Assembly (NCBI GenBank): GCA_019057635.1
Contig: DXJL01000184.1
Span: 1 to 28,556, forward strand
Length of the DNA: 28,556 bases
From: Candidatus Heimdallarchaeota archaeon
GTDB lineage: Archaea; Asgardarchaeota; Heimdallarchaeia; Hodarchaeales; Hodarchaeaceae
Reading direction: 5' to 3'
In this document: in pieces, positions 6,036 through 25,780 of the stretch
Layout: every line of letters begins with the position of its first letter
Position numbering within the stretch: the stretch's first letter is position 1
Notes under the pieces: model-generated
Databases searched by the model: none
The model's input: only the letters and a program-made list of their open reading frames with translations
What the model was told of the DNA's origin: nothing
Made by a program: the position numbers and the translations under genes

Positions 6036-8795
6036 ATGACAGTAGCTCAAAAAGATGAAAAAATCCTCTGGAAACGATATGAATCAGCTCTGGAAGATTA
6101 CAGCTTAACACGTGATCTCGATGATTTGCTTAATGTATTCAAGAAAATTATTAGCTCTTCATCACCTAAACCAACTATTGCGTTACTTAACAACATAGCT
6201 GACCGTTTCGTTAAATTTAAACTCTATGACGAAGCGAAACTTGTCTTTGGAATGATATTACAGGAAGAGAGCCGACATCGTGAGACATGGAAGGCCCTCT
6301 CTTCTCTTTATTTTAAATTAAAAGATAATAGCAAGGCAGAGTTTTGTTTACAGAAGTACTACTTATTAAAGGGAGGAAGTGTTTCAATAAGTTCATCGGT
6401 TAAGAACCGCTTAGCGAGTGCAGGCAAGCTTAAAACATTGCCTACTGACCAACCACTAGGTCTTCAAAAAGCCAAACAGATAGAAGTTCGTGCACCGAAG
6501 AGTGTATTAACTTTAGATGAATTTACAAGGCGCTTCAAATTAAAAAATGCATCTATCCCTACGATTATAAAGAAAATCGTTCATTTTGCTCAACATCAAA
6601 TAATTGATTATAGAATCTTTGATAAACAGAGTGGAGAATTTGGAGACGATCTACACTTTCTTAATAATGGCCAAATCATAAAATATCTAACTGATAGAAA
6701 TATAAAACGGCTTTACAAGTTTCAAGAAGAAGCCTTTCATAAAATTTTATCGAACCAAGATGTGTGCATTGTTGCACCAACTGGTAATGGGAAAACAGAG
6801 GCCTTTCTTCTCCCAGCTCTATTAAAGATCAAAGACTTTGCTGGATATGGCGTTCAACTTCTTATAATTTATCCTCAGAAGGCCTTAGCCAAAGATCAAT
6901 TGAGGAAGATTACTGAAGTTGCCTCTCTCCTAAATCTTCAGGTAGAGGTATTTGATGGAGATACATCTCATTATCGTCGTAAGAAGATTTTTTCTGATCC
7001 ACCAGAAATCTTGATCACTAATCCTGATATTCTCCACTATCATCTTGGAATTGGAAAGAATTCAGGATTTTTTCAGAATTTAATCAGTAATTTGAAAATA
7101 ATCATTTTAGACGAGGTTCACACTTATTCAGGTACTTTTGGAAGCAATATGCACTTCGTCCTTCGTCGATTAGAACGAATATTGGATCAACAAGTACAAT
7201 TTATCACAGCTTCTGCTACGGTAGCTAATCCCCAGACTTTCACAAGTCGCCTATTAAATCGACCAATCACCGTGATTGAGTGTAAAAATGGACGAAGAGG
7301 ACGATTACATTTCTTGATGGTAGCTCCATTTGATGGTATGTCTACTTTTGATGGAATGGCCAGTTTATTGAATTCAATTAAACAATATGGTAAAATTTTA
7401 GCATTTCAAGATTCACACAGAAGTGCAGAATATTTATTTCAAAGATTACGGGGATCTTCTAATCGGGTAGGAATCCATAGAGCTGGTTTAACAAAGAAGA
7501 TACGAGAGAAAGTTGAAACACAATTTAGAGAAGGAGAAATCGATCTTTTAATCGCCACTCCGACATTGGAGTTGGGAATTGATATTGGTGAGCTAGAAAT
7601 AGTAGTAACACCTCCAATATCCGTAAATCGAGCTATTCAACGGATCGGTCGGGCAGGAAGAAAAGGACAGGATGCTATAGCGATCATCCACCTTAATGCA
7701 GATGATCCTATAAGTCATTATTATTACAACAATCCTGAACGGTATTTTCAAGAAGTAGAAGATGTTTTTTTTGACCCAACAAATCCAAATGTCGTTGATC
7801 ATCAACTATTGGCTGCAGCTCTTGATCATCCGTTAGGGATTAATGAATTCCCTGAAAATGTACCAGCAGTAGAAGAATTAGAGAATAAAAGCTTCCTTCA
7901 AAGATTTAACAATGATATTTTCGTCCCAACAGAGCAAGGGATCAAAAAAGTACGGAAATATTCAATCAGAGGAACTAATCACGAAATACAAATCAAAATT
8001 CGTGGAGGTAGACACATTGGAAAACGGGCAATGCCGATCGCGATGTTTGAACTATATCCAGGTGCTTATTATTTAGCAGGCGGCACGAGGTATCGAGTTT
8101 TTAATTACAGTTTTAACGGCTTTCGTGGATGGGCCGAGCTGATAAAGCCAAAAAATGTCTGGGGACAAACTTTTCCTTTAACAAAAATGAAACCTCAGAT
8201 TTTAGAGGTTCAGAAGCCATTAACTTCAATTTATGGAATAGAAGTGGGATTAGTTACAACAAAAATTCTTCAGTCGGTTATTGGATATACACTACAAACG
8301 TCAGCTGGAACCGAAACAAAGAAATTACGAGATCCATTACATTATCCATCGCAATCAAGAGGGTTGTTATTCCAAATTCCATTGTCTTCCCTAGATGTGC
8401 AATTAGATCAGAATAGATTTAGTAATTCCTTACATACCATCGTACATATCCTGCTACATGCAAGTCTGCCTTTTATTGGCGGACAGATTCATGAAATTGG
8501 GGGATTAACTTTATTACCGCAAGGATATATACTTATATTTGATCAAGCAACAGGTTATGGAATATGTGAGATGTTAATGGGCCATTTATCTGAACTCTTT
8601 ACCCGAGCGCGTGTAATTCTTGAATGTAAATGTCCAGATGGTTGTCCCAAATGTTGCTTTTTACCTCGCTGCAGTAAAAATAACACATTATTAGACAAAG
8701 ATGGTGCCCGAAAAATTCTTGATTATATCATACAACAAGATGTAACAATTCCCCTTGGAATGGATTATAATGAATGTAGGATTTTTATTTCATAA
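6036..8795 (+). CDS. Hrq1/MrfA/SftH-type DEAH-box helicase with C-terminal DUF1998 (Zn-binding) domain and TPR-like N-terminal extension
   Basis: APTGNGKT, DEVH, TASAT, HRAG, ATPTLELGIDIG and QRIGRAGR; C-terminal CKCPDGCPKC. Confidence 0.92.
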   Translation: MTVAQKDEKILWKRYESALEDYSLTRDLDDLLNVFKKIISSSSPKPTIALLNNIADRFVKFKLYDEAKLVFGMILQEESRHRETWKALSSLYFKLKDNSKAEFCLQKYYLLKGGSVSISSSVKNRLASAGKLKTLPTDQPLGLQKAKQIEVRAPKSVLTLDEFTRRFKLKNASIPTIIKKIVHFAQHQIIDYRIFDKQSGEFGDDLHFLNNGQIIKYLTDRNIKRLYKFQEEAFHKILSNQDVCIVAPTGNGKTEAFLLPALLKIKDFAGYGVQLLIIYPQKALAKDQLRKITEVASLLNLQVEVFDGDTSHYRRKKIFSDPPEILITNPDILHYHLGIGKNSGFFQNLISNLKIIILDEVHTYSGTFGSNMHFVLRRLERILDQQVQFITASATVANPQTFTSRLLNRPITVIECKNGRRGRLHFLMVAPFDGMSTFDGMASLLNSIKQYGKILAFQDSHRSAEYLFQRLRGSSNRVGIHRAGLTKKIREKVETQFREGEIDLLIATPTLELGIDIGELEIVVTPPISVNRAIQRIGRAGRKGQDAIAIIHLNADDPISHYYYNNPERYFQEVEDVFFDPTNPNVVDHQLLAAALDHPLGINEFPENVPAVEELENKSFLQRFNNDIFVPTEQGIKKVRKYSIRGTNHEIQIKIRGGRHIGKRAMPIAMFELYPGAYYLAGGTRYRVFNYSFNGFRGWAELIKPKNVWGQTFPLTKMKPQILEVQKPLTSIYGIEVGLVTTKILQSVIGYTLQTSAGTETKKLRDPLHYPSQSRGLLFQIPLSSLDVQLDQNRFSNSLHTIVHILLHASLPFIGGQIHEIGGLTLLPQGYILIFDQATGYGICEMLMGHLSELFTRARVILECKCPDGCPKCCFLPRCSKNNTLLDKDGARKILDYIIQQDVTIPLGMDYNECRIFIS

Positions 8796-8830
8796 TTCCA
8801 TCATTTCACCACTATTCTCAATTCTCCCAT

Positions 8831-8845
8831 TTTCAGATATTTAAG
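8831..8845 (+). promoter_or_regulatory. Conserved promoter motif TTTCAGATATTTAAG
   Basis: Identical to the motif upstream of radA; 66 nt before the ATG at 8912. Confidence 0.65.
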
Positions 8846-8911
8846 GTAAGTCAAGGATTCACTACTGAGAAGCCCAGTTTAAAAAAGTGGAATGTCTTTT
8901 AAAACAAAAAA

Positions 8912-10105
8912 ATGGATTCTAAAATGATAAATAGAAGCGTTTTAACTACTATTATCGGATTTTTATTTGGGTACTTCCTGTACACTGTTATTGATTCTAC
9001 TTCACTGTTTATTTTTCTTTTTGGAGGGGTAGGGTACTTCATTGGTTTGATACTTGATAATGCCGATAGAAGACTCCAACTCGAGAAGGTTCAGAATATT
9101 TCTTCAAGTCACGAGGTTTATTATTCTGATATCCTTCCAGAAGCTGTCATATTATATTCTATACTTGATAATATAACGATTATCTTAATTGATTATAAAA
9201 TTGAGGCAAAACCTGAAGATTATCGGCTATCAGTTCTTAAGAACCTTCAAGAGTTTGATTTTCGAGTAATAGAAGATTCTCTTAAGACAATTTTCTCCTT
9301 GAACATTGAATTTCCGGAATTTAATTATCCCTCCATAAGTAATTCCGAAAAAGAACAGAAAAAATTCTTCTATGATATTAAGGAGCAATGCATTGATTTT
9401 CAAGGGGCTGTACAAAAGATAATTCCTGGATTAGTGCTTAGTGCTATCTATAAACCAGATATATTTGGTGATCAGAATATATATAGCCATGAGACTGATG
9501 ATCCTTCTGATTCAATGAAACCCACAGATTTTAATAACGGAGAGCGAAGATCTTCTTCGCTTTCTGAGAAAGTAGATAAAATTAATCCTAGTATTCCTAA
9601 AATCTCAACAGCTAACTTGGAAATTCCAGAATTACAAACTGAAAATGAGGAGAAAATAATGTCTGATCTTTTTGGGAATACTTCGACACCCAAATTAGAT
9701 CCAAAATCTCTTACCAAGTCGCTAGATGAAAAATTTAAATCTTCTATGCAGAATCGGCCTAAAATATTAACTGCGGACAAAATTAAGGAAATTAGCAATA
9801 ATTTATTCGCTTTCCAAGATATGAAGGATGATGATTTTCTTGGTTCCGAAAAACCTGAAACTGACATGAAACCTGAGATAATGACTTCAGTGGAAGCAGA
9901 CTCAACAGGAAGATTCCATGTTCTTGGGAAGGATGAGGAGGGCACTTATGAACTTGTAGAAGAAACATTGGATGAAAAGGAAAGACCTCTATTAGCGAAA
10001 CTCGCTGAACAACTATATGATGAAAAAGAGCGACGAAGTAGTAATTCAGATCCTGAAGTGGATGAAGATTTTAGGCCAAAAGAGTCCTCTAAACAAGAAA
10101 TTTAG
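8912..10105 (+). CDS. Membrane-anchored hypothetical protein (two N-terminal TM helices, alpha/beta domain, acidic disordered tail)
   Basis: Hydrophobic segments at about aa 10-27 and 31-48; D/E/S/P/K-rich low-complexity C-terminal half. Confidence 0.8.
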   Translation: MDSKMINRSVLTTIIGFLFGYFLYTVIDSTSLFIFLFGGVGYFIGLILDNADRRLQLEKVQNISSSHEVYYSDILPEAVILYSILDNITIILIDYKIEAKPEDYRLSVLKNLQEFDFRVIEDSLKTIFSLNIEFPEFNYPSISNSEKEQKKFFYDIKEQCIDFQGAVQKIIPGLVLSAIYKPDIFGDQNIYSHETDDPSDSMKPTDFNNGERRSSSLSEKVDKINPSIPKISTANLEIPELQTENEEKIMSDLFGNTSTPKLDPKSLTKSLDEKFKSSMQNRPKILTADKIKEISNNLFAFQDMKDDDFLGSEKPETDMKPEIMTSVEADSTGRFHVLGKDEEGTYELVEETLDEKERPLLAKLAEQLYDEKERRSSNSDPEVDEDFRPKESSKQEI

Positions 10106-10272
10106 CCCTTATCCCTTGATGACATTTTAAACAGGAAATCTTTCTTTGAAGGAAGTATAAATAATCTCCACAGTGAGAACTTTAGATCTAATTGAATTGT
10201 AAATTGTGTAAAATCTTGATTTTGGAACAGACCAATAACTTTTTATTACAAGGAATGATCTCTCTCTCCAGT

Positions 10273-10788
10273 TCAGCTTATTAACTGCCGAGGGCGATTC
10301 CATAAAGGAGTAGTTGAGAAAGGAATTTTATATCGTTGATTCATGGAATTTAGAATCTCTTTTCTGACTTCCGAATTTAAATTCTGTTGAATTGAAGGGA
10401 CCCGATTTCTTATTTTTCCTTCAGTTGATATTGAAATGATTCCAATCCCGATTTCTCTTGCCCAAAGGAGTTGTTCTTCCAAAGTATCGTTGTTTAGCAA
10501 CTCAAATTGTTCATCAGGACATAATAAGTAACAATAATCACAAAATTGGCTATAAATTGATGGATGATTGACATGAATCTGAGTCTCGGCCTCGAAGAAG
10601 TGAATAGAACTATCTAGTTGACAAATACCTGCTAAATCAATCCGTATTTGCTTCTGACCCCCCTCAAGAAATTCAGATAATTGAAAATGGTCATTACTCC
10701 CTATTTGTAGCTCAGAATACGTCTGAAATTGTAGTTGATTTCTTAGGAATAGTTCTAACTGGTTGACTAGCTGATTTTCTGTTAACAT
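10273..10788 (-). CDS. PD-(D/E)xK-fold nuclease-like protein, MmcB-like
   Basis: YSE...RIDLAGI...HFFEAET...YSQFCDYCYLLCP...GIGII follows the MmcB-type pattern. ATG at 10788; the ORF extends to a TTG at 10797. Confidence 0.65.
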   Translation of the reverse strand: MLTENQLVNQLELFLRNQLQFQTYSELQIGSNDHFQLSEFLEGGQKQIRIDLAGICQLDSSIHFFEAETQIHVNHPSIYSQFCDYCYLLCPDEQFELLNNDTLEEQLLWAREIGIGIISISTEGKIRNRVPSIQQNLNSEVRKEILNSMNQRYKIPFSTTPLWNRPRQLIS

Positions 10789-10845
10789 CTTTCTCAATAA
10801 TGATTGAGATTTTCATTTTTATACTTAAAAATTGAGGAGATCAAA

Positions 10846-10860
10846 TTTTGGATATTTAAG
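10846..10860 (+). promoter_or_regulatory. Conserved promoter motif variant TTTTGGATATTTAAG
   Basis: 13/15 identical to the radA/8912 motif; 58 nt before the GTG at 10919. Confidence 0.6.
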
Positions 10861-10918
10861 TCACATTCACCATTACTAGATGTAAACATTCAGAACAGAA
10901 TATTCAGGTGAGTCGCAA

Positions 10919-11146
10919 GTGACAAGTCAACCAATACTCCAACCGAAAGGTCTTCCCTTTCTGGATGAAGTCTTTGTAAATAGTCCCCTTTGTCAAATAT
11001 GTGAGTTTGCTAACTGGGGAATAGGAGGAATTTGTTCATTATTGTTGAACAGGCGTATACCATCCGTTTTAGTAATACAAGAAGCGCAAGTGATCTCTTG
11101 TAGCGCTCATCGCAACTGGGTTGAGCATTTAGATTTAAATGAATAA
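10919..11146 (+). CDS. Small Cys4 putative Zn/FeS-binding protein
   Basis: CQIC...C...C pattern; AGGTGA at 10906-10911 lies 7 nt before the GTG; 8-nt overlap with the next gene. Confidence 0.65.
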   Translation: MTSQPILQPKGLPFLDEVFVNSPLCQICEFANWGIGGICSLLLNRRIPSVLVIQEAQVISCSAHRNWVEHLDLNE

Positions 11147-12599
11147 TCAAAAAAGGAATTATAACTCAATTAAGAACTGGATGGAACTAACTTTGAGCCT
11201 AACGAGGAGTGGTAATAAAATTTCTCATAAGCTTAAGTTTACTCCTTCACTGGATGAACAGATATTACTAGCTAAAATTCAAAGACAGAATTGCTTAATT
11301 CAGTATCGGCTCGAAGAGAAGCTTAATCGTATTCTGTCCTTGCTTATCAGTCTACATATCTCTAGAGAAAAAACACATGAATCCATTCCACGAGTACTCA
11401 TTCTTACTAAAAGACAAATTCAGGATATCTTCAGAGCAGGGATCCAGGATACCTTAGATCAGATTATAACGATCCATAATGGCCTTATACTCCCCCAAGC
11501 TCGAAAACTGGATTATAGTCGGTTTAGCATAATTCTCTCGACCCCTAAAACGGTGAAAAATGATTTTAAGGAAGATTTCTTTGTAAAAGATCACTTTTCA
11601 CTAATAGTGATTGATTATGCGGAAATGGGGGTATCCTCATCGACTTTACGATTTATTATCAAAAATTTAAAGCCGAACCAAGTAGTTGGTCTATCGAGAG
11701 AGAAAAATACAATAAAGCTTGGACAAGCTTGTGTAAACCTAGAGCTCACGGAATTTGTCAATATCGATGGAAATGCTAGGAGAGAACGGTCTAACATCCA
11801 ACATTATTCACTTCCTTTACCTAAAGAATATTTCTTTGTGCTAGATATTCTTAATCAGCTAAAAAAAAATAGATTAATACAACTTGAAAAGTTAGGGTTT
11901 GGAGTTACTGTGAAAAGCACTCCTCAAGAGGTAGCGGCAATCCATACTAGTTTGTTGAATGAAAAGAACCGAAAACTCTTAGTAAAAACAGCGAATTTAC
12001 AACGAATAATGACAATGCAACGAATGGTAATCTCTCAAGGTTTTCCTGCTCTCATATCTTATCTTGATGATTTACGTCACCGTCTAAATGATAATGATTA
12101 TGTCATAGGTAGAAAAGCTCTAGTTCAGTTTTTAGGAAATCCGATCATCAATAAACTCAATGAATATATTCGCTTATTTAGTGAGTTAGTTCATCCGAAA
12201 TTTCGACAGGTTTTGAAATTACTGGAGGACTATGGATCATCTGTTTCCCTAGTAACCAATAATCGATACAATGCAAAGTTTCTCCAGGAAAAGCTGAATG
12301 AAAAAGGAGTATCCACGATTAATATCACCCAACCGATATCTTCTCTAAAACGAATTCTGCTAGAAAAGAAACTCTTTGCTTTCAGTGGAAAGAAAACTCG
12401 AGTATGCATAACAAATACTGCTAATGAACTTATAGCTAATCTAGCTAATATAATTATTGCATATGATGTAAATGCAGAACTTGTAGAAAAATTGAATAGT
12501 TTGGCTTCTCCAATTCCCAAAGTTTTCTTAATTACGAAGCAAACGAGTGAGGAAGCAAGATTTTTCCATTTGAAAAACTTAGGAAACGGGATTAGATAG
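11139..12599 (+). CDS. Hef/FANCM(Mph1)-like SF2 helicase homologue, predicted catalytically inactive
   Basis: The Hef-like scaffold is retained (QNCLI, TPKTVKND, SLIVID, HPK, FLITKQTSEEA). Walker A GKT is absent, DEAH reads DYAE, and there is no QRxGRxGR. Confidence 0.75.
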   Translation: MNNQKRNYNSIKNWMELTLSLTRSGNKISHKLKFTPSLDEQILLAKIQRQNCLIQYRLEEKLNRILSLLISLHISREKTHESIPRVLILTKRQIQDIFRAGIQDTLDQIITIHNGLILPQARKLDYSRFSIILSTPKTVKNDFKEDFFVKDHFSLIVIDYAEMGVSSSTLRFIIKNLKPNQVVGLSREKNTIKLGQACVNLELTEFVNIDGNARRERSNIQHYSLPLPKEYFFVLDILNQLKKNRLIQLEKLGFGVTVKSTPQEVAAIHTSLLNEKNRKLLVKTANLQRIMTMQRMVISQGFPALISYLDDLRHRLNDNDYVIGRKALVQFLGNPIINKLNEYIRLFSELVHPKFRQVLKLLEDYGSSVSLVTNNRYNAKFLQEKLNEKGVSTINITQPISSLKRILLEKKLFAFSGKKTRVCITNTANELIANLANIIIAYDVNAELVEKLNSLASPIPKVFLITKQTSEEARFFHLKNLGNGIR

Positions 12600-14336: not shown

Positions 14337-14339
14337 TCC

Positions 14340-18057: not shown

Positions 18058-18072
18058 CTTAAATATCTGAAA
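18058..18072 (-). promoter_or_regulatory. Conserved promoter motif TTTCAGATATTTAAG upstream of radA
   Basis: Plus-strand CTTAAATATCTGAAA, 57 nt upstream of the radA ATG; identical to 8831-8845. Confidence 0.65.
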
Positions 18073-18094
18073 TCAGAAAGAATCGTTTTTTTAT

Positions 18095-18110: not shown

Positions 18111-18163
18111 GTAATTTCGAATATAAAAGATGAAGAAGCCCCTCATTACTGAGGGTCTCTAGT

Positions 18164-21100
18164 TTGTGGAAAAAAAAGAGAAAAATACAAAATACTTTGA
18201 TTCTAATTTTCGTACTCGGATTGTTTGTCTTAGTAAATATAGGAGTTAACCAGGTTAGTGCTACTGATCAAGAGACTTCGACAACAGTTCTAGCTGATAA
18301 AGGGGTTGTGGGTTCAGGTGATGTGATTCGCTTTTCTATTTGGACGTACGCAGGTTTTGACTCTGTACCTTTTGGACAAATACGATTAACAGATATTTTT
18401 ACCGGGGAATTTATTGAGACAATGATTACCAATGGTACAGCGGAAGTTGACTGGATTGTACCATCGCCAATTCAATCTGGAGAGCATTTATTCCTCGCTG
18501 AATATCTTGGTTTTTTGGGATATCTTTCCTCTGATGGATCGTGTAAAGTTCGATTTGAAGAGATTAGTCCTGGCAGCACTCGTTCAACATCTTTACAACT
18601 AGTTGTGAACTCAACGACCGTTTATAGGAATGCTTCACTCCATTTTACTCTTAATTTATTTATTCATTATAGGTGGTGGTTCCAAGGAGGGTATATCACT
18701 GTAATTAATGTTAATTTAACTGGAGCTCCAGTAATTTATACCTATGGTCCATTAGAAAACTATTATCCAGGGACTGATCCTGCAATTTTGACGCTTGAGT
18801 TTGATTATAATATTCCTGTGTTTTCTGTCGTCGGAAAATCACAGTTTTATGCGAGCTATACTGGTAGCTCTCAAAGCCAAACATCTCCCTGTACATCAAA
18901 CCCTGTCAATGTAACGGTCTTGAGCTCGGGATTTTGGCTTTACCAGACCATTAATACCACAAAACTTCAACGGACCGAAGAATCAGTCGTTATCAATACC
19001 ACAATTCTTGGAGATAATCCAAATGGATTATTGCTCTCAATATACTATTTACTTGGCTCACAACCAATGATTCTTACAGAAAAAGTGATTCATGGTCGAA
19101 ATTATCAAATAGTGTTTTCACCTAACAGTTCAATTCCCTTGGGTGAACTAACGATTTACACGGAGCTAAAAAATGACCAGTACGATTTATATGCTAATGT
19201 CTCATCAACTATTACAATACAGAATCGTGCTCGGATCCAATATTATTTGAATTCTTCAGATTATAGGCAAAATGAAACAATTCATCTCGAAGCCTACATT
19301 ACATTAGAAGATATACATACTGTTCCCGTTACGTGCCAAGTAGAATTCAGGGATTTAACTGATGGGAATATTTCATTGATGAATAAATTTACTAACTCAG
19401 ATGGATATGTGGCCTTTAATTATCCTCTTCCAGAAGGAATCAGCATCGGAAACCATGAATTTTCACTCCGAGTATTTGATGTAACACTAAATATTCTCGC
19501 AGTCTCAAGTATAATTCTAGTATCTATTAAGGGGTTAATTGAGTTTGATTTGACTTATGAAAGCGGAGGGATTAATCGAAACACAGATACTCAGATTCAA
19601 GTGACAGTTCACTCGGGAGGTGTAACAATTAATGAGGGGTTAGTCTCATTGGAGTACAGTAATTCTACTATTATTGATACTCAGAGCTGCGTATCAGGAC
19701 TTATTTTTAATTATCACATCCGTAATGATCACTCCTTAGGTGATATTTACCTCCTTGTCCATTTCTATAATTCCGAAAATTATGATGAAGGAGCTACTAC
19801 ATTAAAATTAACTGTGTTTTCGGTTCCCCATTTTAGTTCTCTGAATCAAAATTCAACAGAAGTGATTAATGGGCAATCATGCCGTCTTTGGGGGTATTTG
19901 CTTGACGAAGGTGGAAAAGCTGTAATCAATGAAGCAATCCACTTTACTGATACGACGACTGGAGAATTTTTGGGTTTTGTCACCTCTGATGTAGAAGGAC
20001 TATTTTTCTTTGACTATTCTGTGACCGTATCATCCCAAATAGGAGTACATATCTTACAATGCAGCTATCAAGGGAATGTAGGAGCTTTTTATTTACAGTC
20101 AATTAGTCCAGCAATTTTTTCTATCACGATTCGTCCTCCTCTTTCAGTTATGATTCAAGGATCCATCCTCTCAAATCACTGGACAATGATAGAACTAGAA
20201 GGTGGGTTGAATGAAGATATTTCCCTTTATTGGCAACGGGATGGAGAGAGTACTTGGAATTTTATTGCCGTAATCGCATTAAATGCTTCTGGACTAGGAA
20301 ATTATAATTGGACAACACCTTATTACAAAGGTGGATTATCTTTACGAGCTTCAAATCTCAATGGTACGAATACTAAATATGATCATACATTCATGTACAG
20401 TACTGCTGACATTGAAGTAATCGGTGGTGATTATGGAAATGTAAATGATAATTATTTATTTACAGTTAACTGTACGGAAGTTTATCAGATTTGGATGGAG
20501 GGTCAATTATGGAGAGACTGGTCACCAGCAGGAAAACATTCATACTCATATAGCTTCAATAACAGAGGAGTAAAAGAAATTTCCATAATTAGTAATGATA
20601 CATACGTCTATTATCGGATTCTTCATTCTCAAGTAACAATTTTTGAAGACCTAATTATTTCTGTAAGCATTCCTGGGGAAGCTTTTGTGAATATGTCAAT
20701 TCATATTGATGGTAATGTTATAGGAGAAGTTTCGGGTCCTATCATGGGAGTAGATACGATTCTACTGATGGGTGGGATGGAGAATGGGGTTGATTCTACA
20801 AATGGTGCAGGTATCTTCGATTTCATAATTTCATTTGATCAGCCTGGAATCTATACAGTTTCTGTAAAAGTGCCTTTACAATTCGAAGATTATTTCAATA
20901 CCTCATTTAGTCCTCAATTTTCAATTGTAATTCATTCTTTACCTTCTACGATAGAAATTCTTTCACCTGTCAACAACTCTATTCATGGATCTATATTAGA
21001 GCTATCTTTCCGAGGAGATGCTGTGAGTTATTGGTACTTTATTGAACCTCTTGATCAAACGAATAGCTCGTGGACGGATACTGCATATCGTGACTTACCT

Positions 21101-22978
21101 GAGGGGTTATATACTTGTCATGTTTATGGTGAAAATTCCTATGGGTTTTTATCTTATGCTTCTTCATCGTTCAGGATTGATTCAACTGCGCCTTCATTAG
21201 TAATTATAAGTCCAAAGAATGAGTCATACAAAACGAATTCTATTTCACTTTCATTTTTAACTGATGAAGAAACTGTATTTATTTTTTTAGATGATACGCC
21301 AATCGTTGGAAGCTCAGGTTTCGTTTTAACTGACTTATCTGAAGGAAATCACAACGTTACTATTCAGGTTAGAGATACTGCTGAGAATTTTGTCATTAAA
21401 ACCTCAATTTTCAATATTGATACAATTGCTCCTTCTCTAACGATTTTTTCCCCCTATAATTACACCTATATTGAAAAAATACCTTTATCCATCAATTCAG
21501 ATGGTCAAACAATCCTATATTGTATTCCAGAAGTAAATAATACTAATCAGACATATACTACATCATTAGTACTGTATTTACCCATTGGCAGTTATTCACT
21601 CAATGCTTATTCATTTGACTCTGCTGGAAACTTTATATCAGCGCAAGTAAATTTTTCTGTGGTAGAAAAAGTTGATCTTTTAACTAATTCGTATCTCACA
21701 GAAATTGACTCTGCTGGAAACTATCTCCTAAGTACAGAGATATTATCAAATCCATATTTCGAACAAGTCGGAATATATTTGAATGGGAGCCATTTTGGGG
21801 TGTTGGAATGGGATGCGTTTCAGCGGGATTATCGAATTCAATTTCAGTTTCCTTCCCCTGGCCTATGGGAAATCTCATTGTATGCCCACACAGCTGAAAA
21901 TAAGTACGATTTTAGACTATTTCTTGAAAGCTGGTATCCACCACAGCCAACTATCAATTCTCTGTCCGTTTCATGGAAATCGACTTATTATGAATTAAGA
22001 ACAACGATCGATTCACAAACTCTTGACCTTAATCTTGTCCAGGTAACGCTTGATGGTATGAATTACAGTTTAAGTAATTATTTTGGTGATCAATGGTACA
22101 CACAAGTTTACTGCAACCCACAAAATTACACTCTTAGGTTAGACATATGGTATCCATGGGATGACAAGCCTTCTGCTAGCAGAGATTTTGAAATTCTGTG
22201 GTATGCCCCCCATATCATTGTAGTGGAATCAGAATTCGAAAGAAATGGGTTTAATCTTGAAATTCGAGTTGAGAAGGTAAATGCATCACTTTCTACTGAT
22301 AATCCCTTTCTAGCAATCGAAAGTGGGTCTCAAGTTTTCATTGCTGATGGAACTTTGATTTATGAATCAACAACAGGAAGCTATCAAATCTGGCTATTCA
22401 CTTCTCCGTGGTTAACTCCGAATGTTTGGAACTATAATCTAACTGTATTCGATATTTATGGACATTCAAGTCAGTTTTTTGGGATTTTTAACTCAACGGA
22501 TTCTCCTCCAAAGATAGGAGCATCATCCCTAGTAATCCTTGATAACACATCCACTGGGATCCTCTATCGATTAAACGTCCAAGTATTTGATGATTTTGAT
22601 GGAATAGAAGCTTTTCTGTATATTAATGGTGTCGAATTTCCATTCACTCAGATAAATAATTCGTACGTATCCGTTGATTTCTTTTTAACTCAAGGCTCCT
22701 ATGTTCTTCAATTATCAGTAATAGATGATATAAATCAAGAAACAACGGAATTTTTAACGAATTTATACGTCCAGAGTCCGATTGATCAAACCACTACTAC
22801 TACTTCTGGAACAATAGATACAACCGACCCACCGGATCTAACTTCTCAGACAAGTACTCGAAAAGAGGTTAATTTGGATACAGGTATAAATGACTTGATC
22901 GAAATAGGTATCGGAGGAGGACTTTTTGCTAGTCTTGTCGCTCTCGGTAATACAGTTCTTCGAAAAAGGGAACCGTGA
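18164..22978 (+). CDS. Large secreted, C-terminally anchored multi-Ig-domain surface glycoprotein (S-layer/adhesin-like)
   Basis: Basic-plus-hydrophobic signal peptide, beta-rich repeats, three ~80-aa Big-type repeats at about 20950-21660 (IDSTAPSLVIISP, IDTIAPSLTIFSP), many N-x-S/T sequons, a Thr-rich linker and a C-terminal TM helix with basic tail. Confidence 0.88.
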   Translation: MWKKKRKIQNTLILIFVLGLFVLVNIGVNQVSATDQETSTTVLADKGVVGSGDVIRFSIWTYAGFDSVPFGQIRLTDIFTGEFIETMITNGTAEVDWIVPSPIQSGEHLFLAEYLGFLGYLSSDGSCKVRFEEISPGSTRSTSLQLVVNSTTVYRNASLHFTLNLFIHYRWWFQGGYITVINVNLTGAPVIYTYGPLENYYPGTDPAILTLEFDYNIPVFSVVGKSQFYASYTGSSQSQTSPCTSNPVNVTVLSSGFWLYQTINTTKLQRTEESVVINTTILGDNPNGLLLSIYYLLGSQPMILTEKVIHGRNYQIVFSPNSSIPLGELTIYTELKNDQYDLYANVSSTITIQNRARIQYYLNSSDYRQNETIHLEAYITLEDIHTVPVTCQVEFRDLTDGNISLMNKFTNSDGYVAFNYPLPEGISIGNHEFSLRVFDVTLNILAVSSIILVSIKGLIEFDLTYESGGINRNTDTQIQVTVHSGGVTINEGLVSLEYSNSTIIDTQSCVSGLIFNYHIRNDHSLGDIYLLVHFYNSENYDEGATTLKLTVFSVPHFSSLNQNSTEVINGQSCRLWGYLLDEGGKAVINEAIHFTDTTTGEFLGFVTSDVEGLFFFDYSVTVSSQIGVHILQCSYQGNVGAFYLQSISPAIFSITIRPPLSVMIQGSILSNHWTMIELEGGLNEDISLYWQRDGESTWNFIAVIALNASGLGNYNWTTPYYKGGLSLRASNLNGTNTKYDHTFMYSTADIEVIGGDYGNVNDNYLFTVNCTEVYQIWMEGQLWRDWSPAGKHSYSYSFNNRGVKEISIISNDTYVYYRILHSQVTIFEDLIISVSIPGEAFVNMSIHIDGNVIGEVSGPIMGVDTILLMGGMENGVDSTNGAGIFDFIISFDQPGIYTVSVKVPLQFEDYFNTSFSPQFSIVIHSLPSTIEILSPVNNSIHGSILELSFRGDAVSYWYFIEPLDQTNSSWTDTAYRDLPEGLYTCHVYGENSYGFLSYASSSFRIDSTAPSLVIISPKNESYKTNSISLSFLTDEETVFIFLDDTPIVGSSGFVLTDLSEGNHNVTIQVRDTAENFVIKTSIFNIDTIAPSLTIFSPYNYTYIEKIPLSINSDGQTILYCIPEVNNTNQTYTTSLVLYLPIGSYSLNAYSFDSAGNFISAQVNFSVVEKVDLLTNSYLTEIDSAGNYLLSTEILSNPYFEQVGIYLNGSHFGVLEWDAFQRDYRIQFQFPSPGLWEISLYAHTAENKYDFRLFLESWYPPQPTINSLSVSWKSTYYELRTTIDSQTLDLNLVQVTLDGMNYSLSNYFGDQWYTQVYCNPQNYTLRLDIWYPWDDKPSASRDFEILWYAPHIIVVESEFERNGFNLEIRVEKVNASLSTDNPFLAIESGSQVFIADGTLIYESTTGSYQIWLFTSPWLTPNVWNYNLTVFDIYGHSSQFFGIFNSTDSPPKIGASSLVILDNTSTGILYRLNVQVFDDFDGIEAFLYINGVEFPFTQINNSYVSVDFFLTQGSYVLQLSVIDDINQETTEFLTNLYVQSPIDQTTTTTSGTIDTTDPPDLTSQTSTRKEVNLDTGINDLIEIGIGGGLFASLVALGNTVLRKREP
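21615..21722 (+). repeat. Perfect 18-bp direct repeat within the surface-protein gene
   Basis: TTGACTCTGCTGGAAACT at 21615-21632 and 21705-21722 (90-nt period); both copies encode DSAGN. Confidence 0.75.
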
Positions 22979-22983
22979 ATTAA

Positions 22984-23550
22984 ATGAAAAATAGTACTCA
23001 TTATCTATTCTCGCTCGGATTTACAAATTTATATGGGATGTTGATAGTAGAGGAGATGTTCTCCTCTTGGATAATTATGGTACTATCAACGATTACCAGT
23101 TTGTTCAGTTTGGTTCCGAATATCATAGATCGATATGTTAATGTTCAATATGAAAATGAGGGTGTTTTATTAACAAGGAATAGACATCCTCTTACACACT
23201 CTCCTTGGACAGTTTTCTATTTCCTTCCCTTCCTTTATCTTGGACAGAAATCTAATGTAACAATTTTAGAAGTTGTAATAATATTATTTACAATAAGTTG
23301 GCTTTCACATTTATTAATAGATTCATTAAATCCCGGGGGATTACCTTTAGGAAAACGATCTGTCTTCAGTAATCATCCTGTTAAGCATTACAAGTTTCAT
23401 TGGACCCTCCCCCGAAATACAAAACGAATACGTATTGCTCGAATCCCGTTCAATGATCCAAGAGTAAATAAGAATTTGGGTTATCTGGGGTTATTCATTT
23501 TTTCCTTAAATTGTGCAAGAATGTTCCTTTCATTATTTTGGAGTTATTGA
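22984..23550 (+). CDS. Membrane-bound metal-dependent hydrolase-like protein (YdjM/DUF1286-like)
   Basis: THYLFS, PNIID, RHPLTHS and SHLLID motifs set among several TM helices. Confidence 0.75.
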   Translation: MKNSTHYLFSLGFTNLYGMLIVEEMFSSWIIMVLSTITSLFSLVPNIIDRYVNVQYENEGVLLTRNRHPLTHSPWTVFYFLPFLYLGQKSNVTILEVVIILFTISWLSHLLIDSLNPGGLPLGKRSVFSNHPVKHYKFHWTLPRNTKRIRIARIPFNDPRVNKNLGYLGLFIFSLNCARMFLSLFWSY

Positions 23551-23553
23551 AGA

Positions 23554-24612
23554 ATGTGTCTGATAGATAAGAAACAAATTATCACTTTAGGTATCTTATT
23601 AATTATTATCCAGGGAATAACAGTAATTTGTAAAGGAGATTTAGCCAAGACACTCCAGCAACAAGAGAGTAAATCTAGTTCGTATGATTTGAATATCAAT
23701 TATACAATGGATAAACCAGAGTTAACTTTTAATCGTTTTATTGTCTTGTCTAGACAATGGGATAAGTTATTTCTAAATTTATCCATTCAAAATTTTGGAG
23801 AACCAATTGATACTATCTTAACTACAATCAAAATTAATGGTATCATTACAGATCACGTTTTTTCAAGTAATGAAAGAGAAGGCCTTAAGAATTGTCTTGT
23901 TTATCAGTTTGATCAACCTCAGGCATTGATGATTCCGCTAAATTATTCATATCAAGAAATACTCTCCGTTTCTGTTTCCATGAATCTAGACTCCCTCATA
24001 TCTTGGCGCGAAGTGGAATATAATTTCACAATATTTTCGGCAATTGTTCATGCAGTTGATCTTGTACAACCCCTTAGTGAACAATCTTTGATGATTTTGT
24101 CTAGCAACTTCCAATATGCTCTTCAACCGTCACAAATATCATTTTTTGGTAAAAAAATACTTACAAAAAGTCTACTTCCTGTGGATATTCCTGATAATTT
24201 GTATCTTTCATCAATTCTTGAAATTACTATTAAAGGCGGACAATTTGATTACTTAGCACTTGGAACGGGAAGAAATCATGCCATAGATGGGAATGTTGTA
24301 AGAATAAATTCAACAGTCAATAAAGTCGATCTTGAAAACCAGATTTGGCATATTAATCTCTATATTATCCCGATTATTTCCTCTACTGATGATTATTCTA
24401 CAATAAGTATTTCTATTAGAGCTTATGGCCTTCTGAAGGAAATTAAAACATTAAATAACAATTTAGAGTCGGTTAGTCATCCCATTCCTGGATTTATAAT
24501 GATTCCAGTACTGATCTTCATTCTGTTTGGGATTCCATATTATTATGTCTATCAGGAGGAACTTTCTGAAAAAGACGATCGAATCATAGATTCAGGCTTA
24601 GGAAAAATGTGA
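23554..24612 (+). CDS. Exported, membrane-anchored hypothetical protein
   Basis: N-terminal hydrophobic signal, beta-rich middle with N-glycosylation sequons, C-terminal TM helix (GFIMIPVLIFILFGIPYYY). Confidence 0.8.
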   Translation: MCLIDKKQIITLGILLIIIQGITVICKGDLAKTLQQQESKSSSYDLNINYTMDKPELTFNRFIVLSRQWDKLFLNLSIQNFGEPIDTILTTIKINGIITDHVFSSNEREGLKNCLVYQFDQPQALMIPLNYSYQEILSVSVSMNLDSLISWREVEYNFTIFSAIVHAVDLVQPLSEQSLMILSSNFQYALQPSQISFFGKKILTKSLLPVDIPDNLYLSSILEITIKGGQFDYLALGTGRNHAIDGNVVRINSTVNKVDLENQIWHINLYIIPIISSTDDYSTISISIRAYGLLKEIKTLNNNLESVSHPIPGFIMIPVLIFILFGIPYYYVYQEELSEKDDRIIDSGLGKM

Positions 24613-25061
24613 AGAACCCAGTGAATTCTCATCAACAATCTACGACATTAAGTAAACCAAATGTCTTGATAGGGGATTATTACAAGTGTGTGAGTCTTCT
24701 AATGACTGCTAGAATCGAAGAATGGGTGATTCCCAAAATATTATGGATTGATTTCCGAGTAGTTCCGTTACCTTATTTTTACCATATACTTCGTCGGTAT
24801 AAATCCTTGAAAAATAAGTTTTCTTTTATGGAAATATTGTCAATTGAGGATTATAAACAAATTCTTGGTTCAAATGAGCTTTCAACATACTTGAAAAATG
24901 GATTTTCTTCGCTGATTGTGAATTATCCGCCATTGTGTACTAACAATCATGAAAATTGGACATACCTTAAAAAATTAGCAGTTTCAATGGTCGTTAATGT
25001 TATCGTTTCCAAAGATCTGTTTCCAGCAAACGAATGCACACGCTTTGTAGTTGACTCATAA
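24609..25061 (+). CDS. Hypothetical protein, probable degenerate RecA/Rad51-paralogue fold
   Basis: NVLIG, KILWID, SSLIVN and LKKLAVSMVVNVIVS follow the RecA core order, with no GKT/S. GTGA and TAATG overlaps with its neighbours. Confidence 0.55.
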   Translation: MKNPVNSHQQSTTLSKPNVLIGDYYKCVSLLMTARIEEWVIPKILWIDFRVVPLPYFYHILRRYKSLKNKFSFMEILSIEDYKQILGSNELSTYLKNGFSSLIVNYPPLCTNNHENWTYLKKLAVSMVVNVIVSKDLFPANECTRFVVDS

Positions 25062-25780
25062 TGGAAACCATTGATAGAGTTAAAAGTCTTCAAGAAATAA
25101 ATGAAGAGCTAGAAAAATCCATTAAAATCACGATGGGTATTGATATTATTGATAATCTTATAGGGGGTCTTATTGCAGGACAAATCCATTCGATTTTAGG
25201 TGAATCGGGAGTCGGAAAATCGTGGTTCTGTCAACAGGCAATTAACTCAATACTCACTAGTGATCGGAATGCGAATGTTATTTATTCGGATTTTTCAGGA
25301 AATATTCGATTTCAGAATCTCAAAAAAACTTTGAATTGTGAAGAATTTCTGGATCAGGTGAATTTTTTCCACCCAAATTCTATTTTAGAGAATATCATCC
25401 TAATTAAAAAAATTGTTGAGGGACAGTATTCGGATATTTCCCTACTAATTTTAGACACAATATTTGGTTCACCTATGCAACTTATTGAGCTTTTTGGCGA
25501 ATCTAAGAAAAAATGGACACGAAATATCTTTTATTTTATGTTAGATCTTAGAAAAATCGCTATTAGAAGAAACATACCTATCATCATTGCTCATCATGCT
25601 TTTTCCGATGCTTCAAAGGAGTTAGCAAGTAAAGATAGATTAATAGATCCTTTTTGTATGACAAAATCAGTATTACATAAATCTAGTAATGGATCCTCAC
25701 TAGATTTCTATATATACAATCAATCTCTTGGATCAACCACTATTAAACTGTATTCGGATAGGGATGAGGATTTAGAATAG
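25061..25780 (+). CDS. RadB/Rad51-paralogue-like RecA-family ATPase
   Basis: ITMGIDIIDNLIGGL, Walker A GESGVGKS, Walker B LLILDT and LRKIAIRRNIPIII; no N-terminal HhH domain. Confidence 0.85.
   Translation: METIDRVKSLQEINEELEKSIKITMGIDIIDNLIGGLIAGQIHSILGESGVGKSWFCQQAINSILTSDRNANVIYSDFSGNIRFQNLKKTLNCEEFLDQVNFFHPNSILENIILIKKIVEGQYSDISLLILDTIFGSPMQLIELFGESKKKWTRNIFYFMLDLRKIAIRRNIPIIIAHHAFSDASKELASKDRLIDPFCMTKSVLHKSSNGSSLDFYIYNQSLGSTTIKLYSDRDEDLE

Follow-up and report, generated by a model that had tools for sequence, protein, structure and literature searches.

A lineage-specific gene set in Hodarchaeales links recombination-repair genes to membrane and surface proteins and suggests a DNA-handling envelope apparatus

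Introduction

The closest described counterparts of the locus reported here are the type IV secretion-derived systems for archaeal DNA import, Ced (with Ups) in Sulfolobales and Ted in Thermoproteales, as described in the literature (10.1101/2024.09.27.615246, PMC11823120, PMC9905601). Our locus resembles them in encoding a VirB4-fold protein (g12) together with membrane proteins, in its functional neighbourhood of homologous recombination and a cell-contact device, and in being chromosomal and lineage-wide rather than plasmid-borne. It differs in that g12 has no P-loop, no VirB2-like pilin, CedA/VirB6-like or CedD/VirD4-like protein was recognised here, and cell contact would fall to a giant anchored surface protein instead of type IV pili. 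Here the locus also includes genes for helicases, for RadA and for RadB-like proteins, whereas to our knowledge the Ced locus is without such neighbours.

ComB, the DNA-uptake system of Helicobacter, is like Ced a VirB4-based DNA importer, and DNA uptake in Gram-positive bacteria is driven by the ComFA helicase. Fusions of VirB3 to VirB4 are known and frequent, and a small protein with two transmembrane (TM) segments that resembles g08 of our locus is in some sequences fused N-terminally to a g12-like protein, a parallel in layout. The core of g12 superposes on VirB4 of the type IV secretion inner-membrane complex (VirB3-VirB4-VirB6-VirB8; R388, PDB 8rtb/8rtd). Unlike that complex and ComB, the locus offers no match to VirB6 or VirB8 and its ATPase is dead, and in contrast to VirB4, g12 has an extra C-terminal helical domain. 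The HerA-NurA resection machine and HerA defence complexes share the ATPase superfamily fold and the genomic link to recombination genes, but Pfam searches found no NurA, Mre11 or Rad50 in the window and g12 lacks a P-loop. Eukaryotic complexes of Rad51-paralogue and FANCM type are rich in pseudo-enzymes, and the locus resembles them in its make-up: one recombinase is active, a RecA-family mediator is paired with a degenerate partner, the Hef/FANCM-like protein is dead, and helicases of XPD and Hrq1 type are present. We know of no such eukaryotic complex that is membrane-anchored.

Results

The window, which is the whole stretch of 28,556 nucleotides analysed, has a flat GC content of 0.32-0.40. 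An initial annotation had described a co-oriented unit of radA, a HerA/VirB4-like gene and xpd diverging from a five-gene unit. Coordinates, strands, gene order and spacing were all verified, most of the family assignments stand, and its observation as a whole is confirmed. The minus-strand unit has gaps of 34 and 3 nt.

16984..18000, minus strand: radA-w, full-length RadA that carries an HhH domain and the Walker A motif GENGCGKT
14340..16949, minus strand: g12, VirB4/HerA-fold pseudo-ATPase of 869 aa that begins with a beta-rich domain and ends in a helical region
12579..14336, minus strand: xpd, Rad3/XPD-type helicase

The plus-strand unit is spaced by gaps of 5 and 3 nt and then by overlaps of 4 and 1 nt, which translationally couple g17 to g16 and g18.

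18164..22978, plus strand: g14, surface protein of 1604 aa whose N-terminus is hydrophobic and which has a C-terminal TM segment and a basic tail
22984..23550, plus strand: g15, membrane protein of the YdjM family (predicted membrane hydrolases)
23554..24612, plus strand: g16, type-I-like membrane protein of 352 aa in which an ectodomain of ~270 aa lies between a hydrophobic N-terminus and a C-terminal TM segment
24609..25061, plus strand: g17, 150-aa cytoplasmic orphan
25061..25780, plus strand: g18, 239-aa RecA-superfamily ATPase, RadB/Rad51-paralogue-like, Walker A and B intact

Alongside these two units are further genes with helicase, nuclease or membrane features, and two copies of a promoter element.

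6036..8795, plus strand: g07, DEAH-box helicase of MrfA/YprA/Hrq1 type
8831..8845, plus strand: promoter element TTTCAGATATTTAAG, upstream of g08
8912..10105, plus strand: g08, membrane protein with two TM segments at the N-terminus, followed by a conserved cytoplasmic domain and a long acidic tail that carries a conserved PLLAKL motif at its C-terminus
10273..10797, minus strand: g09, conserved 174-aa protein
11139..12599, plus strand: g10, Hef-helicase-like, without Walker A
18058..18072, minus strand: promoter element TTTCAGATATTTAAG, upstream of radA-w, conserved in three close relatives
25792..26658, minus strand: g19, 288-aa all-helical polytopic membrane protein

An RNA run yielded only seven small contigs, located on radA and the giant gene g14.

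The initial call of g12 as HerA/VirB4-like and inactive is borne out by its fold and by its relatives. In the AF2 model (pLDDT 76), residues 193-594 superpose on the VirB4 C-terminal domain (4ag5_A) with Z 27.4 and an rmsd of 3.4 over 322 residues, followed by DndH-C (Z 26.3), HerA (Z 23.4) and TrwB (Z 22.3). HerA-NurA and HerA-defence structures (4d2i, 9x1l, 8xav, 8wld) score Z 20-23 with Foldseek E ~1e-9, and the superfamily's viral packaging ATPases also match (e.g. STIV B204, Z 16.6). Foldseek ranks TrwK/VirB4 from the R388 secretion system first (6.3e-10). The helix/strand pattern of the model reads as a putative winged-helix-like stretch in the C-terminal region. The Walker A (GK[ST]) motif is absent from 22/22 aligned relatives, and strongly conserved residues persist in the dead ATPase. 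The family is small, with 61 representatives among 1.84 billion proteins. Active DUF87/HerA-family genes are located elsewhere in the genome (C212, C74, C10 and C75).

The family assignment of radA is secure (PF08423 3.1e-70), although its PRK04301 score of 347.6 bits compares with 440-449 bits for two further, canonical RadA genes elsewhere in the genome. In a tree built without eukaryotic sequences, radA-w branches within the sampled Heimdallarchaeia RadA sequences, and its clade is supported at 100/99. The window gene radA-w is a divergent, dedicated RadA paralogue specific to Hodarchaeales. The xpd call is likewise supported by Pfam (DEAD_2 4e-13, Helicase_C_2 8.9e-19), and GFGKT, DEGH and four cysteines can be read in its sequence. 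A tblastn search of the genome at E 1e-4 found no second xpd, leaving the window copy as the sole one found. Two Rad51-paralogue-like proteins had been proposed at the end of the surface operon. This stands for g18, which has an intact Walker A (GESGVGKS), a TIGR02237 match under the cut-off (1.9e-10) and PDB profile matches to RadA (1.8e-10) and RAD51D (1.6e-8). It found no confirmation for g17, for which no relatives were detected, the PDB profile search was empty, and hhalign against the 239-aa g18 family gave a probability of 0.4%. The order g16-g17-g18 is retained in 7/7 fetched relatives that hold these genes.

Among the other enzymes, the Hrq1/MrfA-like identity of g07 is upheld by its match to YprA (PDB 6znp, 5.8e-59), next to a TIGR03817 match under that model's cut-off (2.3e-87), and that of g10 as Hef-like by NF010337 (4.3e-18) and PDB 1wp9 (3.8e-5). 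No GKT motif was seen on reading the g10 sequence, and g10 is probably a pseudo-helicase. The suggestion that g09 is MmcB-like was not confirmed, with Pfam and PDB profiles giving no match and a weak Atlas match (score 0.88) to a cluster of which 12% of the members carry that label. D54 and E69-x-E71 of g09 are invariant in the alignment. It may be a nuclease-fold protein, and both g10 and g09 look inactive.

Among the membrane and surface proteins, the giant g14 had been called an Ig-repeat surface protein, which is confirmed in part: it has a hydrophobic N-terminus and a C-terminal TM segment, and the Ig similarity detected by Pfam is limited to one weak stretch (Big_13, 9.3e-7). The YdjM/DUF1286-like character of g15 holds (PF04307 at 31.7 bits, above its cut-off of 29; DUF1286 7.8e-4). 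For g16, present in 20/21 genus genomes, Pfam gave no family match. In g19, residues P62, F63, H168, P181 and R221 are invariant; its 34 clusters are all unnamed or hypothetical, with Asgard as the organism label where one is given. The initial annotation had proposed comparing the membrane proteins with VirB6, CedA and ComEC, and for the g19 model (AF2 pLDDT 74) no match to these was found, the top fold match (Z 7.5) covering a helical hairpin only. The absence of a recognisable pilin, CedA, ComEC or relaxase was upheld, and no VirD4/CedD-like coupling protein was recognised either.

The TM segments of g08 were assigned by hydropathy, and alignment places its conserved cytoplasmic residues at P76, E121, Q164 and IPG171-173. 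It matches its paralogues by hhalign (73%, 3e-5). A g08-like domain is fused N-terminally to a g12-like protein (hereafter 869-like) in L035, P0008 (2.8e-56) and P0020 (9e-43), the latter two being among the 61 library representatives of that family. We propose that g08 is the membrane anchor of g12.

The promoter motif said to be common to radA and the two-TM gene is real: the 3.19-Mb genome has exactly two copies of the 15-mer TTTCAGATATTTAAG, one upstream of radA-w and one upstream of g08. The 14-mer ATTTTGAGTATAAA has four copies in G008, including the radA and g08 promoters, and three in G007, including the g12 and g08 promoters, while its reversed control gave no match in either genome (0, 0, 1, 0 and 0 over the five genomes searched). 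Counts of a degenerate form of the motif within the window are partly circular since the pattern was derived from five of its six window matches, and its 13 tested matches outside the window precede unrelated housekeeping genes.

The synteny check agreed with the initial description, with radA-w facing the surface operon in 16/17 genus genomes in which both were found, in one of the 16 only across a contig break; the two are apart in G015. The string radA-w, g12, xpd is present in seven genus genomes, and in nine fetched genomes g12 lies away from radA-xpd, often standing alone. In G007 and G008, g12 and g08 adjoin g07, with g19 one gene away from g12, and in G010 g19 is directly upstream of g12. 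Position and order are kept even between species that share just 30-45% protein identity, and the gene set is near-universal and syntenic within the genus, not patchy. A g12 profile search of 200 sampled Asgard genomes besides G000 recovered it in eight of nine further genus genomes, and weakly in one, and as judged by sequence the gene set is restricted to Hodarchaeales.

A second, paralogous cluster was found in six genomes (G020, G018, G004, G013, G003 and, in partial form, G002). It contains 869-like, YdjM-like, 352-like, g08-like and g19-like genes with an AAA ATPase whose N-terminus looks MIT-like by eye, and the YdjM-like paralogue is in every copy. Exported proteins are encoded near the cluster in G018, and a tubulin/FtsZ-family gene lies near it in G020. 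Since no DNA enzyme is recognisable in it, the core membrane module may act on a non-DNA target. In the sister family f2, an 869-like gene, XPD, a g08-like gene (hhalign 89%, 2.3e-6) and a g09-like gene form a string, with 2-3 nt between the first three and the last two ORFs overlapping as called. There, radA-w is followed by the apparent start of an 869-like ORF (by eye), and an Ig1604-like gene is upstream of adjoining g19-like and YdjM-like genes. The paralogous cluster, the g08-869 fusions and the f2 string extend the membrane-repair link beyond adjacency, and comparative sequence evidence thus supports the surface/membrane and recombination-repair genes as one evolutionarily coupled set.

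Discussion

The contact, DNA-uptake and repair system proposed in the initial annotation is sustained as far as a coupled gene set with an inactive HerA-like protein, with DNA exchange or import as a tentative reading of it. The genes could encode an apparatus that is anchored in the envelope and handles or imports DNA for recombination, similar in function to Ced/Ups of Sulfolobales or ComB of Helicobacter but assembled from other components, a reading that we favour tentatively and at less than even confidence. We found no published description of this gene system. In the envelope-anchored apparatus, g12, probably a ring like its relatives, would be held at the membrane by g08 with g19, g15 and g16 and would act as a passive docking site or portal, not as a motor. 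Where DNA crosses or touches the envelope, XPD (5'-3') and the MrfA-like helicase (3'-5'), both active, would thread and unwind it, after which RadA-w, aided by g18 and g17, would be loaded on it for homologous recombination. The giant g14 would provide cell-cell or cell-substrate contact. Against import stand the missing P-loop of the g12 family, whereas VirB4 and CedB require ATP hydrolysis, the lack of any recognised pilin, coupling protein, relaxase or ComEC and of a VirB6/CedA match for g19, and the separation of g12 from radA-xpd in the nine genomes. Since g19 has no match to VirB6, CedA or ComEC and the paralogous cluster contains no recognisable DNA enzyme, DNA exchange is one of several readings.

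The same proteins could instead form a membrane-tethered scaffold for repair or chromosome processing with no DNA transfer, which we consider rather unlikely. The dead VirB4/HerA-like and Hef-like proteins and the orphans would build a platform at the membrane that concentrates RadA-w, XPD and the MrfA-like helicase where the cell's own DNA is damaged or replicating, as in cross-link repair or when the chromosome is anchored for segregation. Several components do resemble pseudo-enzymes, a hallmark of scaffolds, MrfA/YprA and XPD are repair helicases, and no transfer-specific part was recognised. As the genome search turned up no xpd besides the window copy, the cluster also serves ordinary repair. 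A scaffold leaves unexplained, however, why giant surface and ectodomain proteins are translationally coupled to RecA-family proteins, why this link is retained genus-wide, and why VirB4 is the closest fold to g12. The locus may also hold two separate neighbouring systems, perhaps co-regulated, in which g14, YdjM, g16, g19, g08 and g12 serve adhesion, surface-protein handling or membrane remodelling beside an ordinary cytoplasmic recombination-repair cluster. The paralogous cluster, with its AAA ATPase and no DNA enzyme, near exported proteins or a tubulin/FtsZ-family gene, would fit this, as would the relocation of g12 in nine genomes and the detached surface operon of G015. We judge it unlikely given the g08-like gene inside the f2 string of 869-like, XPD and g09-like genes, the overlaps of g16, g17 and g18, the position of g12 between radA-w and xpd in seven genomes and after radA-w in f2, and the promoter element common to radA-w, g08 and the relocated g12.

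Defence against viruses or plasmids, in which a sensor in the envelope would direct helicases and a nuclease to incoming foreign DNA along the lines put forward for Zorya-type systems, appears distinctly improbable. A membrane complex with helicases and a nuclease-like protein would suit it, the HerA fold is common among defence systems, and library models of related families match g07 (BrxH, 4.1e-62) and xpd (type IV DinG, 5.6e-56). But no PADLOC or PHROGs model matches any of the unknown proteins, the set is near-universal and syntenic in the genus instead of patchy, and it holds the sole xpd found and recombinases with no effectors, its nuclease-like and Hef-like parts appearing inactive. 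Given the VirB4-like fold of g12 and its match to the viral packaging ATPase STIV B204, the locus could also be what is left of a provirus or integrated conjugative element with a decayed VirB4/HerA-type ATPase. This is scarcely credible, as integrase, relaxase and capsid families are absent from the window, GC is flat, position and order are constant across species despite the low protein identity, and g12 still keeps strongly conserved residues.

Hodarchaeales keep a lineage-specific gene set of two halves. The cytoplasmic DNA-processing half comprises RadA-w, XPD, the MrfA/Hrq1-like helicase, g18 with its small partner, and the Hef-like and nuclease-like proteins, and the envelope half comprises the dead g12, the two-TM g08, YdjM-family g15, bitopic g16, polytopic g19 and giant g14. 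The joint inheritance of a RadA copy, helicases, a dead ATPase and membrane and surface proteins suggests an undescribed DNA-handling envelope apparatus in this lineage.

Gene Organization of the Locus

The window is an entire contig of 28.6 kb from a 3.19-Mb genome (G000) that is 91.6% complete, and its GC content is even along its length (0.32-0.40). Homologues with organism names carry the labels Hodarchaeota, Hodarchaeales or Heimdallarchaeota, in keeping with an Asgard archaeon of the Hodarchaeales. Our ORF map reproduced exactly the gene order, divergence, gaps and overlaps claimed in the initial annotation, including the spacing within the plus-strand surface operon, where the first two junctions are gaps of 5 and 3 nt and the last two are overlaps of 4 and 1 nt.

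Genes of the radA-w unit and of the surface operon, from the ORF map
16984-18000, minus strand: radA-w, a RadA gene
14340-16949, minus strand: g12, 869 aa, VirB4/HerA-like, 34-nt gap to radA-w
12579-14336, minus strand: xpd, 3-nt gap to g12
Plus strand, divergent from the radA-w unit: surface operon of g14 (1604 aa), g15 (188 aa), g16 (352 aa), g17 (150 aa) and g18 (239 aa)

Pfam and NCBIfam confirmed the family calls made for RadA, XPD, YdjM (g15), the Hef-like g10, the DEAH helicase g07 and the RecA-family g18. The YdjM match of g15 (PF04307) reaches 31.7 bits with a gathering cut-off of 29, and a paralogue at another locus of the genus (L031) reaches 37.8 bits. In xpd, DEAD_2 and Helicase_C_2 both lie above the Pfam cut-offs and the motifs GFGKT and DEGH and four cysteines can be read in the sequence; its score on TIGR00604 (125.8) is under the cut-off of 246.95. 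g07 resembles YprA/MrfA of B. subtilis (5.8e-59) and g10 the Hef helicase domain 1wp9 (3.8e-5), with no GKT motif seen when the g10 sequence was read. Judged by the curated cut-off for RadB (TIGR02237, 172.4), under which it falls well short at 40.9 bits, g18 is classed as a member of the RecA superfamily only and not as RadB.

Other calls fared less well. The giant protein g14 had been described as Ig-repeat; one Ig-like stretch was found by Pfam, and no more than that one. The description of g17 as Rad51-paralogue-like found no backing, since hhalign against the RecA family (g18) gave a probability of 0.4% and a PDB profile search was empty. Nor was the MmcB-like call for g09 backed, since neither Pfam nor PDB profiles gave any match; an Atlas look-up returned a weak MmcB-like lead (score 0.88), and in the g09 alignment D54 and E69-x-E71 are invariant and the lysine of the PD-(D/E)XK nuclease motif is lacking.

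Several further features of the contig were recorded. The TGA stop of g12 is followed by an in-frame GGA and the xpd ATG (14336-14342, minus strand), so that a single read-through at this stop would join g12 and XPD. An open-frame search found the joint frame at 1458 aa in G000 and 1450 aa in one relative (G020) and in none of the other genomes listed; by our own arithmetic the gap is out of frame in another (G004). The in-frame junction is probably a coincidence. A Cys-rich paralogue pair flanks the locus (108 aa at 2627-2953, minus; 101 aa at 27353-27658, plus), and the 101-aa gene stays beside the cluster in several relatives. At 2959-5865 (minus), an AMP-binding-like protein and a LuxC-type acyl-CoA reductase (1.7e-48) form a pair, with a double-HTH Lrp/AsnC-like regulator and a HEAT-repeat protein next to them; the genes of this region are unrelated to the finding.

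A Divergent RadA Paralogue

Four full-length RadA genes are present in G000. On PRK04301, the copies on contigs C72 and C68 score 440 and 449 bits, radA-w 347.6 and the copy on C20 334. With a PRK04301 score over the cut-off (347.6 vs 259), an HhH domain (HHH_5, 9.4e-15) and both Walker A and Walker B, radA-w has the features of an archaeal RadA, and it lies under the cut-off of TIGR02236 (324.8 vs 361.15). When 30 RadA sequences were placed in a maximum-likelihood tree, radA-w grouped with its orthologues of the genus and of the sister family f2 in a long-stemmed clade of their own (support 100/99). On sequence grounds, radA-w is best described as a special, divergent RadA paralogue. RadA duplication has been reported in Heimdall- and Gerdarchaea, and the passages of that paper on the duplication do not mention Hodarchaeales (PMC12722695).

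Conservation of Gene Order

Synteny was compared in 22 genomes of the genus, G000 included, with radA-w orthologues accepted at a threshold of at least 70% identity. Both a radA-w orthologue and g16 were found in 17 of the 22. The divergence of radA-w from the surface genes is retained: in 15 of these 17 the two share a contig and diverge, at a distance of 5.5-5.9 kb, and in one further genome (G018) radA-w faces the giant gene across a contig break. Wherever the DNA was fetched, the space between radA-w and g16 is occupied by the giant gene and the YdjM gene. Three loci (G002, G005, G009) stop at contig breaks, and radA-w and g16 are both absent from G007, a genome 71% complete.

In G015, radA-w and g16 are separated by 567 kb. 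There, a RadA paralogue of the C20 type shares a 1964-aa open frame with the giant gene (L032, G015:C1, 8470-14364, minus), and the genes downstream, among them a Vps4-like AAA gene, match contig C20 of G000; the arrangement may be either a rearrangement or an assembly join. In G021 the locus is rearranged, the giant gene is truncated, radA-w was not found and g12 is interrupted by a TAG stop codon (L081, G021:C49; G021:C5), which shows decay of the gene set in one species. The truncated giant gene of G021 abuts a Hef-like fragment and g09.

The position of g12 is more variable. It lies between radA-w and xpd in seven genomes (G000, G001, G004, G006, G018, G019, G020) and away from them in nine of those fetched, where it is found beside g19, g07 and g08 (G007 and G008), directly after g19 (G010) or otherwise alone.

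g12 Is a Predicted Inactive Relative of VirB4 and HerA

An AlphaFold2 model of g12 (pLDDT 76) was built from an alignment of g12 with 13 orthologues and eight paralogues (22 sequences), and the modeled protein has the VirB4-type RecA-like ATPase fold. Foldseek placed TrwK/VirB4 of R388 first (8rtd_P, 6.3e-10), followed by HerA complexes and DndH-C. In VIA comparisons, g12 scored Z 27.4 with the C-terminal domain of VirB4 (4ag5_A; rmsd 3.4 over 322 residues), 26.3 with DndH-C, 23.4 with HerA and 22.3 with TrwB, and 18.9 with full-length TrwK (8rtd_O; 449 aligned); DndH-C and VirB4, about 1 Z unit apart, are about level as fold matches. GK[ST] is missing in all 22 aligned sequences at the position of the P-loop, where g12 of the window reads VCGSDKNE, in line with the initial annotation of the HerA-like protein as inactive. 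D258, at a Walker-B-like position, is invariant in the alignment and a GEGLLFR motif is conserved. The fold, the absent P-loop and these conserved residues together argue that g12 is a conserved, catalytically dead member of the VirB4/HerA clade.

The family is narrowly distributed. A g12 profile found 61 relatives among 1.84 billion representative proteins; in 200 sampled Asgard genomes besides G000 it matched eight of the nine further genomes of the genus and gave one weak match elsewhere, and it also matches both f2 genomes. Active DUF87/HerA genes are present elsewhere in G000.

Membrane Protein Families That Travel Together

A second, paralogous cluster occurs in five genomes (G020, G018, G004, G013, G003), and part of it is seen in G002, where the contig ends. 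It comprises relatives of g12, g15 (YdjM), g16 and g19 (a 288-aa polytopic membrane protein in the window), an AAA ATPase and a ~240-aa protein with two TM segments. The last is related to g08 (hhalign 73%, 3e-5), which itself has two N-terminal TM segments by hydropathy, and P76, E121, Q164 and an IPG motif are conserved in their joint alignment. In G003, the g12-like protein begins with such a g08-like domain, a fusion of 988 aa in all (BLASTP 2e-6 over 199 residues), and the same fusion occurs in two of the 61 library representatives (P0008, P0020). Both halves of the locus are present in the sister family: G023 has a string of g12-like, XPD, g08-like (hhalign 89%, 2.3e-6) and g09-like genes, and G022 one of g14-like, Cys-rich, g19-like and YdjM-like genes. 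Next after the f2 orthologues of radA-w, on the same strand, comes what appears by eye to be the start of a g12-like ORF, cut by the contig end. From the paralogous cluster, the fusions and the f2 strings, it therefore follows that g12, g08, g15, g16 and g19 travel together, and they do so also with radA-w, xpd, g09 and g17-g18.

Two f2 proteins considered as further members, a 518-aa protein as Hef-like and a 265-aa protein as g08-like, gained no support. The f2 Cys-rich gene, between the Ig-like and g19-like genes, encodes 153 aa.

The g19 model (pLDDT 74) matched nothing in PDB at E <= 0.001 with Foldseek, and the best of 48,161 chains in VIA reached Z 7.5 on a hairpin only, a value that proves neither a new fold nor a lack of likeness to VirB6/CedA. 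An Atlas look-up returned only unnamed Asgard clusters and weak leads (0.81-0.82). Peptidase_M50B and DUF3267, each assigned to 14% of a cluster's members, were dropped as leads because no HExxH motif was seen.

At the C-terminus of g08 and its paralogues (L028-L031, L035) is a short helix motif that is conserved (PLLAKL; LLxK) and, by eye, similar to an MIT-interacting motif. In the paralogous cluster, the AAA ATPase looks MIT-like by eye at its N-terminus and matches Vps4 at 3.2e-37, with a better match to VAT/p97. A contact between the g08-like tail and the MIT-like N-terminus of the ATPase is possible. A few kb downstream of the cluster in L028 (G020:C230) are a tubulin/FtsZ-family gene (14245-15618; PF00091, 1.4e-16) and a coiled-coil protein, and long acidic coiled-coil proteins follow the g12-like gene in L028, L034 and L035.

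A Shared Promoter Element and Expression

The promoter motif that the initial annotation saw before both radA and the 2-TM gene was recovered. The 15-mer TTTCAGATATTTAAG occurs at two sites in G000, one 58 nt ahead of radA-w and the other 67 nt ahead of g08, with ~0.05 copies expected by chance in our own estimate from base composition, and it is retained before radA-w in three close relatives. In more distant species, radA-w, g08 and the relocated g12 all have ATTTTGA(G/A)TATAAA in their promoters. The exact 14-mer has four copies in the 5.9 Mb of G008, two of them before radA-w and g08, and three in G007, where g12 and g08 are each preceded by one; the remaining copies lie within or before small unrelated ORFs, and the reversed motif gave 0 matches in either genome. 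A genome-wide repair regulon was considered and rejected. A looser degenerate pattern has 43 matches in the genome and is over-represented in the window, where six of them lie, but it was built from five of those six; the 13 matches examined elsewhere stand before genes with no relation to the set, for instance those for pyruvate kinase, a prenyltransferase and a tRNA methyltransferase. Since the counts for the looser pattern are partly circular and its other matches fall before such genes, we confine the claim to an element shared by radA-w, g08 and g12.

The 341-nt intergenic region between g09 and g10 (10798-11138), long for an otherwise compact locus, contains the promoter-like element twice, in opposite directions.

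In one metatranscriptome (X10), seven small contigs fall on radA-w and the giant gene only (5 of 30 bins). They are a weak hint that these two genes are expressed; DNA carry-over is possible and the uncovered parts are uninformative.

Comparison With Known DNA Transfer Systems

The RecA-like ATPase fold of VirB4 and CedB is common to g12, whereas their Walker A is absent from it; likewise HerA of the HerA-NurA system resembles g12 in fold (Z 23.4), but g12 has no P-loop, and Pfam found no NurA, Mre11 or Rad50 family in the window. The remaining parts of such machines were looked for with the same result as in the initial annotation, which had recognized no pilin, CedA, ComEC or relaxase. Among window ORFs of at least 80 aa there is no small 2-TM candidate for a VirB2-like pilin (CedA1, TedC), no VirD4/CedD-type coupling ATPase was matched by Pfam or NCBIfam among the 22 window proteins, and no relaxase was recognized in the window by Pfam. 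AAA_10 gave only a weak sub-threshold match elsewhere in G000, and the competence channel ComEC (PF03772) had no match in this 91.6% complete genome, the control search matching 10 of 14 reference genomes. A candidate for a VirB3-like small TM protein, bound or fused to VirB4, might be g08, with its two N-terminal TM segments and its fusion to g12-like proteins in L035, P0008 and P0020. The fold comparison suggested for the membrane proteins yielded no convincing VirB6/CedA-like channel and no ComEC match for the g19 model, either with Foldseek against PDB or among the 48,161 VIA chains. Although the set is proposed to work like Ced/Ups and ComB, it does not qualify as either: the P-loop is missing, and no pilin, VirB6 or coupling protein was recognized.

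Discussion

The most economical mechanism for this gene set would be a docking scheme. g08, with g19, g15 and g16, would hold the dead g12 at the membrane, where g12 would serve as a dock or portal; active helicases and RecA-family proteins would act on DNA at this site, and the giant protein g14 would supply contact. A bolder reading, which we consider rather unlikely, would give Hodarchaeales a dedicated machine of their own design for cell contact and DNA exchange. New membrane proteins would anchor a dead VirB4-like portal, and this portal and a giant adhesin would pass incoming DNA to helicases, the specialized RadA paralogue and a Rad51-paralogue-like pair. The machine would be chromosomal, would serve recombination between cells and would have evolved independently of Ced, conjugation and competence. 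In the same reading a second envelope machine, built on the same chassis, would be encoded by the sister cluster, whose AAA ATPase has an N-terminus that looks MIT-like by eye.

Three main rivals have to be weighed against DNA exchange. The two modules might be merely co-located, and the 567-kb separation in G015 and the wandering of g12 agree with this; the paralogous cluster, the fusions and the f2 strings make the link between membrane and repair genes more than adjacency. The paralogous cluster also contains an AAA ATPase and no DNA enzyme, and nothing argues more strongly that the chassis in the membrane may as such have a purpose other than DNA. A membrane-tethered repair scaffold is another rival, with which the dead g12 and the lack of any recognized pilin, channel or coupling ATPase agree. 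The genes might also be a defence system; PADLOC and PHROGs models matched none of the proteins of no known family in the set.

No published description of the gene set was found in a full-text literature search. On the cautious reading too, the locus adds several new Hodarchaeales-restricted families (g08, g12, g16, g17, g19), a VirB4/HerA-fold protein retained in a non-catalytic role and a RadA paralogue whose genomic context is specialized. Direct entry points for experiment are offered by the fusions, the shared promoter and the paralogous cluster. Hodarchaeales are often placed beside eukaryotes, and to our knowledge no Asgard apparatus for DNA exchange and recombination has been described so far. 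If DNA exchange is the true reading, the locus would provide a concrete gene set for studying how DNA is exchanged and recombined in close archaeal relatives of eukaryotes, and it would bear on how sex and the network of Rad51 paralogues originated.
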